A stretch of 64,000 nt of DNA from Clytia hemisphaerica. Lineage: Eukaryota. The translations under genes and the position numbers were made by a program. Every line of letters begins with the position of its first letter. Within the stretch, counting starts at the first letter, position 1. The stretch is taken from contig NW_027104315.1 of the NCBI RefSeq assembly GCF_902728285.1, positions 162,032-226,031 of the forward strand, in the 5' to 3' direction. The notes under the pieces are model-generated. The model saw only the letters and a program-made list of their open reading frames with translations, made no database searches and was not told the origin of the DNA. Positions 62,298 to 64,000 of this stretch are shown here, in pieces.

Positions 62298-62600
62298 TTA
62301 TACATCTGAACGACATGTTTTTAAATTGTAGACCATTGAATTATTATTAGCCGCTAGGAAGGTATCTTCTGTTGGATTAGAGGCTAAACACGTATAACCT
62401 TGCGCTCGATGATTGAAAAAGCCGTAAATATTTTCCCCGGTTTCGGCGTCGAAGAGCCTCAAAGTACCATCTTCTGAAGCTGTCAATATTTGTTTCTCAT
62501 TGTTCAAAAGTAAAGCATCTTGTCCAGTACTTTCATGGCCTGTGTGATAAAATAAATTCTTAATATGAGTAAGCCAATTTTCTAACGAAAATGCCAGAGA
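62298..62600 (-). CDS. Paralogous NWD-like terminal WD40 exon (…LNNEKQILTASEDGTLRLFDAETGENIYGFFNHRAQGYTCLASNPTEDTFLAANNN… stop). May be the last exon of a second NWD gene whose body lies beyond 64000, or a pseudogene fragment
   Basis: ORF 62298..62651 (-) aligns residue-by-residue with + strand exon 49142-49506 (DGTLR-FD-ETGEN-Y-FFNHRA..YT-LA..P...TFLAAN); 5' boundary not resolved. Confidence 0.5.
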   Translation of the reverse strand, partial: SLAFSLENWLTHIKNLFYHTGHESTGQDALLLNNEKQILTASEDGTLRLFDAETGENIYGFFNHRAQGYTCLASNPTEDTFLAANNNSMVYNLKTCRSDV

Positions 62601-64000
62601 AAAGCCGGGATGACAACTCTTAGTTACCATTAAGAGAAACACAGTGGTCAAAATCCTATTTTATTTGGGTGTTTCAATTAGAAAATATGACATCATCTTG
62701 ACTTACGTATATCAAGAAAAAAACTGATGAAAAAGATTGAGACATTAGCCTGTACCAAACTCTTAAAAAAAGATAACGCGAAGTTTGGTTAGTTACCTAA
62801 GAAGATCCTGTGCCTGAGACATTTTCATTTTTAGTTAAAAATCAATGGTATGTTTATACATTAGCTTTTAAAATACACCAACGCGTAACTTAATACTGGG
62901 TAGATGATCTAGTACCATATAATTGTGACAAGCGACACATATTTAACCGAAGAGAAGTCAATCATAAAGTAAAAAACTAACTTACTAAGGGAAGAGGTTG
63001 AAGAATGAAGTATAAGCCCGAAGGGCTAGAATCGAATCTCTAACCTTTTCTCAGGCAAGAAAAATTGAAGCCTTAAAATATGCGCCGTATTTTTGACGAC
63101 GGATTGAATCTAGCAATTCTTTTGTTTTCGAGTGATATTTTTTTCAAAATTTAGTGGTAAATTTTAGTTTCAGTCTGCCATTTGTGTAAAATCCAGGCGG
63201 GCCGCGCTAGGCCACGCAACTTTGGTAGGATTTGTTGGCTTCAATTCTTATCAAGGAGATTCGTAGTCTAGCAAGCTAGACGACTAATTCATACATAGTA
63301 GAAATAAAGCAAAAAGTAATAAAGGGAAAAATTTTAGTCGTCTAGAAACCTTTGTGCACTAACTCCAAACAAAAGAAAAGTGTCAATATTTGCAATTATA
63401 ATTTTTTTCCCGCTCAAAATAATTCTTGAGAAAAACATGTGTGTGGATTTGTGTATTGAAAGTTTTTCATTTGATTTGATTTTGTTTTGAGAGTTTGTTA
63501 TTGCTTGATTAAATTGTTCTCTCGCCACGCAAGTTTCTGCGTAGCTAGCCGGGGTATCTATAAGGCTGGAACACCGGATTCTTCCAGTCGTTTATACAAA
63601 CTAAATCCCGTATTATTATTATTAGTATTACACGCATTATAAACGACTCCAGTCTAGGAGATTCGATTCTAGTCCTTCGAGCTTATATTTTATTGGTGCT
63701 TTAGGGAGGGTGAGAAAATGTGAAATATGGGTTGCGAAATATTTTAGTATTTTTAGAGTATAAATTTGGTTCATGTATGGTATACTAGAAATTCTTCATC
63801 CGTCCTGGAAAATCATTTTGGTGTTGTTTTCAAAGTATTTACAATCGGTGACTAAATATTGTGGCAAGAATTCCTTCCCCCCATTAGTATCAATGTTGAT
63901 GGGTAGAAATGCTGCCACCATGCTCAGAAAAAGCTCACATCAACACTGATATTAGGGGGAAAAGGATTTTTCAAGAAATTGCCGCATATTTTGTCACTGA

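Follow-up and report, generated by a model that had tools for sequence, protein, structure and literature searches.

In the STAND NTPase APAF-1, C-terminal WD40 propellers bind the trigger, gate oligomerisation and hold the NTPase off. Vertebrate NWD1 and NWD2 combine an N-terminal DUF4062, a NACHT-type P-loop NTPase, a helical/winged-helix region and C-terminal WD40 propellers. DUF4062 was shown to be a TIR-like NADase (bioRxiv 10.64898/2026.05.01.722283), and for NWD1, NWD2 and TEP1 the WD40 part is the proposed sensor that holds the NTPase off, with DUF4062 as the effector (10.64898/2026.05.01.722283). In the sponge Halichondria panicea, 181 additional NACHT-domain genes were described, and the legend of the receptor-architecture figure for this species lists DUF4062 and WD40 (PMC8242945).

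The locus compared with these systems lies in a window of 64,000 nucleotides of Clytia hemisphaerica (contig NW_027104315.1, positions 162,032 to 226,031), the whole stretch of DNA that was analysed. An exon on its - strand, at 62539..62298, is probably the last coding exon of a second DUF4062-NACHT-WD40 STAND-NTPase member, the rest of which would lie beyond position 64000. The first member is encoded on the + strand. The tail-to-tail orientation given in the preliminary description was confirmed, the two 3' ends flanking a two-exon rhodopsin-family GPCR (57005..58775, + strand; Pfam 7tm_1 57.4 bits, E 2e-15), and the gene cluster proposed there rests, in the window, on one complete gene and one exon. 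Upstream of the NACHT gene, two adjacent + strand ORFs of 399 and 152 aa (6147-7817), the first matching RVT_1 with 97.6 bits, are probably a non-LTR retrotransposon. Rfam and tRNA scans of the window returned no matches.

The + strand gene was traced over an approximate span of 14538..49506 by tblastn of four related metagenome proteins (P0005, P0008, P0009 and P0013), by Pfam and by a match to the TIR-like domain of TEP1. The tblastn searches placed at least 12 exons on the + strand at 15763-34052 and none on the - strand, and more exons follow up to 49506. The start at 14538 is that of a candidate first exon. There, shortly before the first DUF4062 exon that was mapped, a Pro/Lys/Gln-rich ORF (14532-14909, + strand) opens with the myristoylation-like sequence MGSIVSSKKKK; it may be exon 1, and no relative aligns at this position. 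With a rough concatenation of the N-terminal exons as the query, DUF4062 (PF13271) scored 30.6 bits (cut-off 24.7), NPHP3_N 30.9 bits (cut-off 24.8) and NACHT 26.2 bits (cut-off 26.7), and the best solved-structure match of the N-terminus was the TEP1 TIR-like domain (11gz_A, E 2.3e-17). The P-loop exon with the NPHP3_N/NACHT match (23397-23684) contained the Walker A motif GEPGCGKS; the gene also has the Walker B motif LFLIIVDA, and a weak HTH_NWD1 match was located at 24723-25337 (15.6 bits, E 0.015, cut-off 27). At the other end of the gene, a penultimate exon (48555..48719) is separated by a last intron of 539 bp from the terminal coding exon (49259..49506), which matched WD40 with 29.3 bits (cut-off 27). 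The NWD-like label that the gene had been given is thus borne out by its architecture of DUF4062, NACHT/NPHP3_N and WD40.

The N-terminal query retrieved 12 proteins of ~900-1,200 aa with 38-57% identity from ENA metagenome ORFs, and named NWD1 was absent among the close matches. Beyond about 30% identity, the relatives mostly combined DUF4062-NACHT with TPR rather than WD40. A 267-aa exon at 27517-28320 had no database match at E <= 0.001 among 1,359 word-sharing candidates. Introns of the gene reach 5-6 kb, and one of them holds a 296-aa + strand ORF (20848-21738) in which a GIY-YIG nuclease domain was recognised (26 bits, cut-off 22.6); the ORF may represent a Penelope-like element's endonuclease part. 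A 63-bp tandem repeat (47362-47564, + strand; 3.2 copies, 92% matches) runs in frame through a putative exon and encodes an Asn/Gly/Asp-rich low-complexity insert; its opposite strand yields a spurious 152-aa Ser/Pro-rich ORF (47202-47660).

On the - strand, the ORF listing of the window contained an open reading frame of 117 aa at 62298..62651. Because a homologous phase-1 AG acceptor lies inside both this ORF and that of the + strand last exon (49126..49506), the coding exons are shorter than the ORFs. The - strand acceptor reads cacag/GC CAT (...tttatcacacag/GCCATGAA) and delimits a terminal coding exon at 62539..62298, with two bases of a split Gly codon, 79 complete codons and a TAA stop at 62300-62298. 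The + strand acceptor reads ctag/GT CAC (...atttcactctag/GTCACAGT) and delimits the exon at 49259..49506. In both copies the AG falls at the homologous nucleotide and splits the Gly codon preceding His. Three copies on metagenome contigs (L001, L002 and L003) have the identical acceptor position and phase, and the frame translations of two others (L011 and L012) extend to the same G-H start. The 3' end of the last intron (62540..62558, - strand) consists of a polypyrimidine tract and the AG acceptor (62541-62540); the nucleotide alignment to L002/L003 extends over these 19 nt and then ends, and apart from this acceptor region the nucleotide similarity between the exon and its relatives stops at the exon edges. 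The upstream conservation K-x-x-F-x-Y-x-x-GH noted earlier therefore holds in part: G-H belongs to the exon, whereas K-x-x-F-x-Y arises by translation of the T-rich intron 3' end and is not protein conservation, because the acceptor lies just before G-H in both copies.

The product of the - exon comprises one WD40 repeat (GH...DGTLRLFD), three more strands and then the canonical C-terminus of the family, which reads FFNHRAQGY..LASNP..FLAANNNSMVYNLKT.... Its Pfam WD40 score of 23 bits (E 1.2e-4) fell short of the gathering cut-off (27), and further beta-propeller models matched with E values from 8e-5 to ~0.07. No LRR match was obtained for the C-terminal exons in the Pfam search, in which WD40/beta-propeller models matched instead. 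For a gene caller restricted to the window, the outcome would be a 117-aa orphan ORF or a missed exon.

The alignment between the two C-terminal ORFs reported in the preliminary description was reproduced by BLASTP, in which 62298..62651 (-) and 49126..49506 (+) shared 44/80 identities (55%) and 73% positives in a gapless alignment with E 2e-32. The similarity spanned the WD40 repeat GH...DGTLR[LI]FD, the non-canonical strands ETGEN.Y.FFNHRA..Y..LA...P....FLAAN.N and the tail; both frames end, as described before, about 15 codons past AAN(E/N)N, with stops at 13 (-) and 15 (+) codons. When six-frame stop-to-stop fragments of 61.5-64 kb were searched by blastp against the remaining window, this was the only strong match (E 4e-29), all others being ~1e-4 or weaker. 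By these alignments, the - exon and the terminal exon of the + strand gene are true paralogs.

Four close relatives of the - exon were present in the database, with 65-81% amino acid identity, all on short metagenome contigs. The exon was nearer at the nucleotide level to foreign copies on such contigs (77-79% identity to L001, 80% to L002/L003 and 82% to L011) than to the + exon (65-72%), and its identity to L012/L013 was 69-70%. The nearest relative of the + exon was the foreign copy L012 (73%). Since dS between the two window exons is about 1.0-1.5, near saturation (Nei-Gojobori), and each exon is closer to different foreign copies, their split is old, and on these distances the two copies are old paralogs of two subtypes. 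The lineage-specific local inverted duplication suggested earlier is ruled out as a recent event by the same figures. That neighbouring copies are ancient subtypes rather than recent local duplicates bears on how the family expanded.

The coding constraint on the - exon was assessed against these copies. Its Nei-Gojobori dN/dS was 0.085-0.16 relative to L001, L002 and L011, where dS was 0.7-1.4, and 0.22 relative to the + exon, the comparison of terminal exons that had been put forward as a check. Differences from L002 fell at codon positions 1/2/3 in the ratio 13/6/27, a third-position bias, and a relative-rate test with the + exon as outgroup counted 4 unique amino acid changes in the - lineage versus 5 in L002, indicating no acceleration. 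The reading frame is intact, and all 24 of the 24 residues that are invariant over the - exon, the + exon, L001, L002, L011 and L012 are present. Such a pattern is that of an exon translated for essentially all its history, and the purifying selection shown by the dN/dS values argues against a long-dead, isolated pseudo-exon, the alternative named in the preliminary description. When substitutions were placed uniformly at random in a crude simulation, the frame remained open in just 38% of trials with 10% divergence and in 17% with 20%, so any decay would have to be recent. The dN/dS value averages a long history, and a recent truncation or inactivation is compatible with it.

The last intron of the - exon is incomplete in the window (62540..64000, >1,461 bp) and contains no family exon: six-frame blastp, hmmsearch with a penultimate-exon profile and word-7 blastn found no further family exon on the - strand at 62540-64000, and within the window the profile matched only the + strand at 48467-48763. 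Last introns of other copies are ~140-540 bp where measurable. An inverted-repeat-bounded insertion of 691 bp (63004..63694) was recognised in the intron by its 37-nt arms (63004-63040 / 63658-63694), which are 89% complementary and 617 nt apart; its part at 63026-63199 is a dispersed repeat with a second copy at 16532-16696. A hairpin/foldback element (63875..63961; 22-nt arms, 36-nt loop) lies inside the intron at the window edge. Without the 691-bp insertion, ~770 bp of other intron sequence remain within the window. Since the insertion takes up part of the intron and introns of the + strand gene are as long as 5-6 kb, it is plausible that an exon lies just past 64000. On the 3' side, a signal scan of the 1 kb that follows the stop found neither AATAAA nor ATTAAA, a mild negative, with ~2 such signals expected by chance in 1 kb by a back-of-envelope estimate from base composition. 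A dispersed repeat with a long G run (62045-62060) occupies 61860-62170 and recurs at 18500-18700 and 50300-50650. As it lies 130-440 bp downstream of the stop, the presumed 3' UTR of the - exon enters repetitive DNA.

The 1,461 bp devoid of a family exon, the missing poly(A) signal and the WD40 score below cut-off weigh against a full gene. An alternative is that the exon is a relic, all or nearly all that is left of a member whose truncation or inactivation, for example by the transposon insertions or a rearrangement, would be fairly recent, and now stands outside any functional transcript. A last intron already longer than in the other copies where it was measurable, the repeats on both sides of the exon (63004-63694 upstream and 61860-62170 just downstream) and the absence of a canonical poly(A) signal within 1 kb would fit this reading; multigene families of this kind also often carry fragments, and one related copy (L012/L013) has an early in-frame stop. 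Against it stand the intact frame, the conserved acceptor, the full set of invariant residues, a dN/dS of ~0.1 and the lack of excess lineage-specific changes (4 versus 5). On balance, a relic appears unlikely.

The position of this exon type in related genes was examined on longer contigs. All long related contigs (4/4) encode a DUF4062-NACHT-WD ORF and, 1.7-5 kb further downstream on that strand, the C-terminal module: in L004 an uninterrupted NACHT ORF (10001-13399) was followed by a terminal-exon homolog at 18145-18411 (ending ...NGMLYILTSD*), in L005 (ORF 10001-12961) by one at 14988-15074 + 15307-15453 (ending ...NGLFYLLKT*), in L009 (10001-13039) by one at 14562-14902 and in L010 (10001-13594) by one at 15581-15706. 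Because the last small same-strand ORF is homologous in all these contigs, this exon type represents a conserved 3' end of DUF4062-NACHT-WD40 genes. Furthermore, the closest copies of the - type, L002 and L011, have a penultimate exon that precedes the terminal one by ~500 and ~140 bp, respectively, indicating that the subtype belongs to multi-exon genes; the penultimate exons of L002, L011 and L012 are homologous to the + strand exon at 48555..48719. These observations bear on a further alternative, in which the module belongs to a WD40-only or recombined gene with a front end other than DUF4062-NACHT. The WD module alone is visible on the - strand, domain shuffling is frequent in STAND families, and the more distant relatives of the + strand gene mostly carry TPR, all of which would allow such a gene. 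However, the consistent placement of the module behind DUF4062-NACHT-WD ORFs in the contigs examined and the homology of the L002 and L011 penultimate exons to that of the window NACHT gene make it improbable.

Several features of the metagenome relatives were recorded beside these. The four long contigs carry one uninterrupted ORF of ~1,000-1,200 aa, versus at least 12 exons separated by introns of up to several kb at 15763-34052 of the window; the difference could reflect intron gain in the window or a retrogene-like intron loss in the relatives. L004 and L005 contain one family copy each within +/-10 kb, and L009 and L010 one each (P0009 tblastn). ENA sample ERZ27264675 holds at least three different terminal exons, so that a related organism has multiple copies of the family. 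The + type copy P0004 (L012 413-620, L013 203-410) has an in-frame stop right after AANEN, 13-15 codons earlier than in all other copies, and L012 starts with a duplicated 59-nt terminal-exon piece fused to the penultimate exon; the L012/L013 copy is either in decay or an assembly chimera. The neighbours of the NACHT-WD gene on L009 (1-203, 17498-19285 and 20320-23039; coverage ~144x) encode SRCR, Ephrin-receptor-like and Laminin-G proteins, so that the relatives probably come from an animal host genome with sponge-like gene content. The module FFNHRA..Y..LA...FLAAN.N was recovered from metagenome relatives only. Screening JGI metagenomes with the terminal-exon alignment brought up only L006-L008, three weak WD40 matches of a generic kind. 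With the same alignment, an exhaustive profile search over 1.84 billion representatives gave 67,091 matches, swamped by bacterial WD40 proteins; four inspected best matches (e.g. P0061) were multi-repeat WD40 STAND proteins, apparently bacterial, and uninformative for the family.

Two further readings carry little weight. It is very improbable that an orphaned WD40 tail exon was exapted under selection into another transcript, for example one for a small stand-alone propeller-tail protein, or that it belongs to a convergent transcript with a 3' end interacting with the neighbouring GPCR locus. A chance ORF with generic WD40 likeness has a vanishing probability: ORFs of at least 90 aa are common in this AT-rich DNA (the first 55 kb of the window contain 27) and WD40 repeats resemble each other, as the swamped profile search illustrates, but this reading is refuted by the BLASTP match (E 2e-32, 55% identity), which covers the non-repeat tail and the stop position, by foreign copies 77-82% identical in nucleotides across the exon only, by dN/dS and by the codon-position bias.

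Directly supported are the homology, the exon boundaries, the coding constraint, the family architecture and the 3'-end position of the module in such genes; the full gene behind the - exon and its mechanism are what we infer. Transcription of the second gene would converge with that of the + strand member and of the GPCR, and the body of this gene would begin past 64000, reached across a last intron enlarged by transposon-like insertions. The NACHT and DUF4062 domains, which the + strand paralog carries, would by analogy lie there as well. Based on the Pfam alignment coordinates and general WD40 knowledge, the - exon would encode the last complete blade of the C-terminal propeller, three strands of its closing blade and a short tail. 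This propeller may serve as a sensing and auto-inhibitory domain, in analogy to APAF-1, NWD1 and TEP1. Ligand binding at the propeller would release NACHT-driven oligomerisation, which in turn would activate the N-terminal DUF4062 (TIR-like NADase) effector.

As the 3'-end marker of a probable second DUF4062-NACHT-WD40 gene, the - exon is ordinary for a multigene family; its own value lies in annotation rather than in a new mechanism, and the family has become more interesting since DUF4062 was reported as a TIR-like NADase. Among the described systems, NWD1 and NWD2 share the domain order of the + strand paralog, an architecture to whose C-terminal end the - exon is homologous. The label NWD-like is architectural, as HTH_NWD1 stays below its cut-off in the + strand gene (15.6 bits versus 27) and the relatives are ENA ORFs at ~55% identity. 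TEP1 likewise combines DUF4062, NACHT and WD40 and provides the closest structural match of the N-terminus, whereas its TROVE and vWA N-terminal domains were not seen in the mapped exons of the + strand gene. APAF-1 has a CARD effector and NB-ARC instead of DUF4062 and NACHT, and offers an analogy rather than membership. Canonical NLRs are NACHT-LRR proteins; with its WD40 C-terminus, the family in the window is not a bona fide NLR family. It resembles the NACHT expansions of invertebrates such as sponges in being multi-copy, and the - exon most likely adds a member to the known DUF4062-NACHT-WD40 kind, whose architecture is already familiar.
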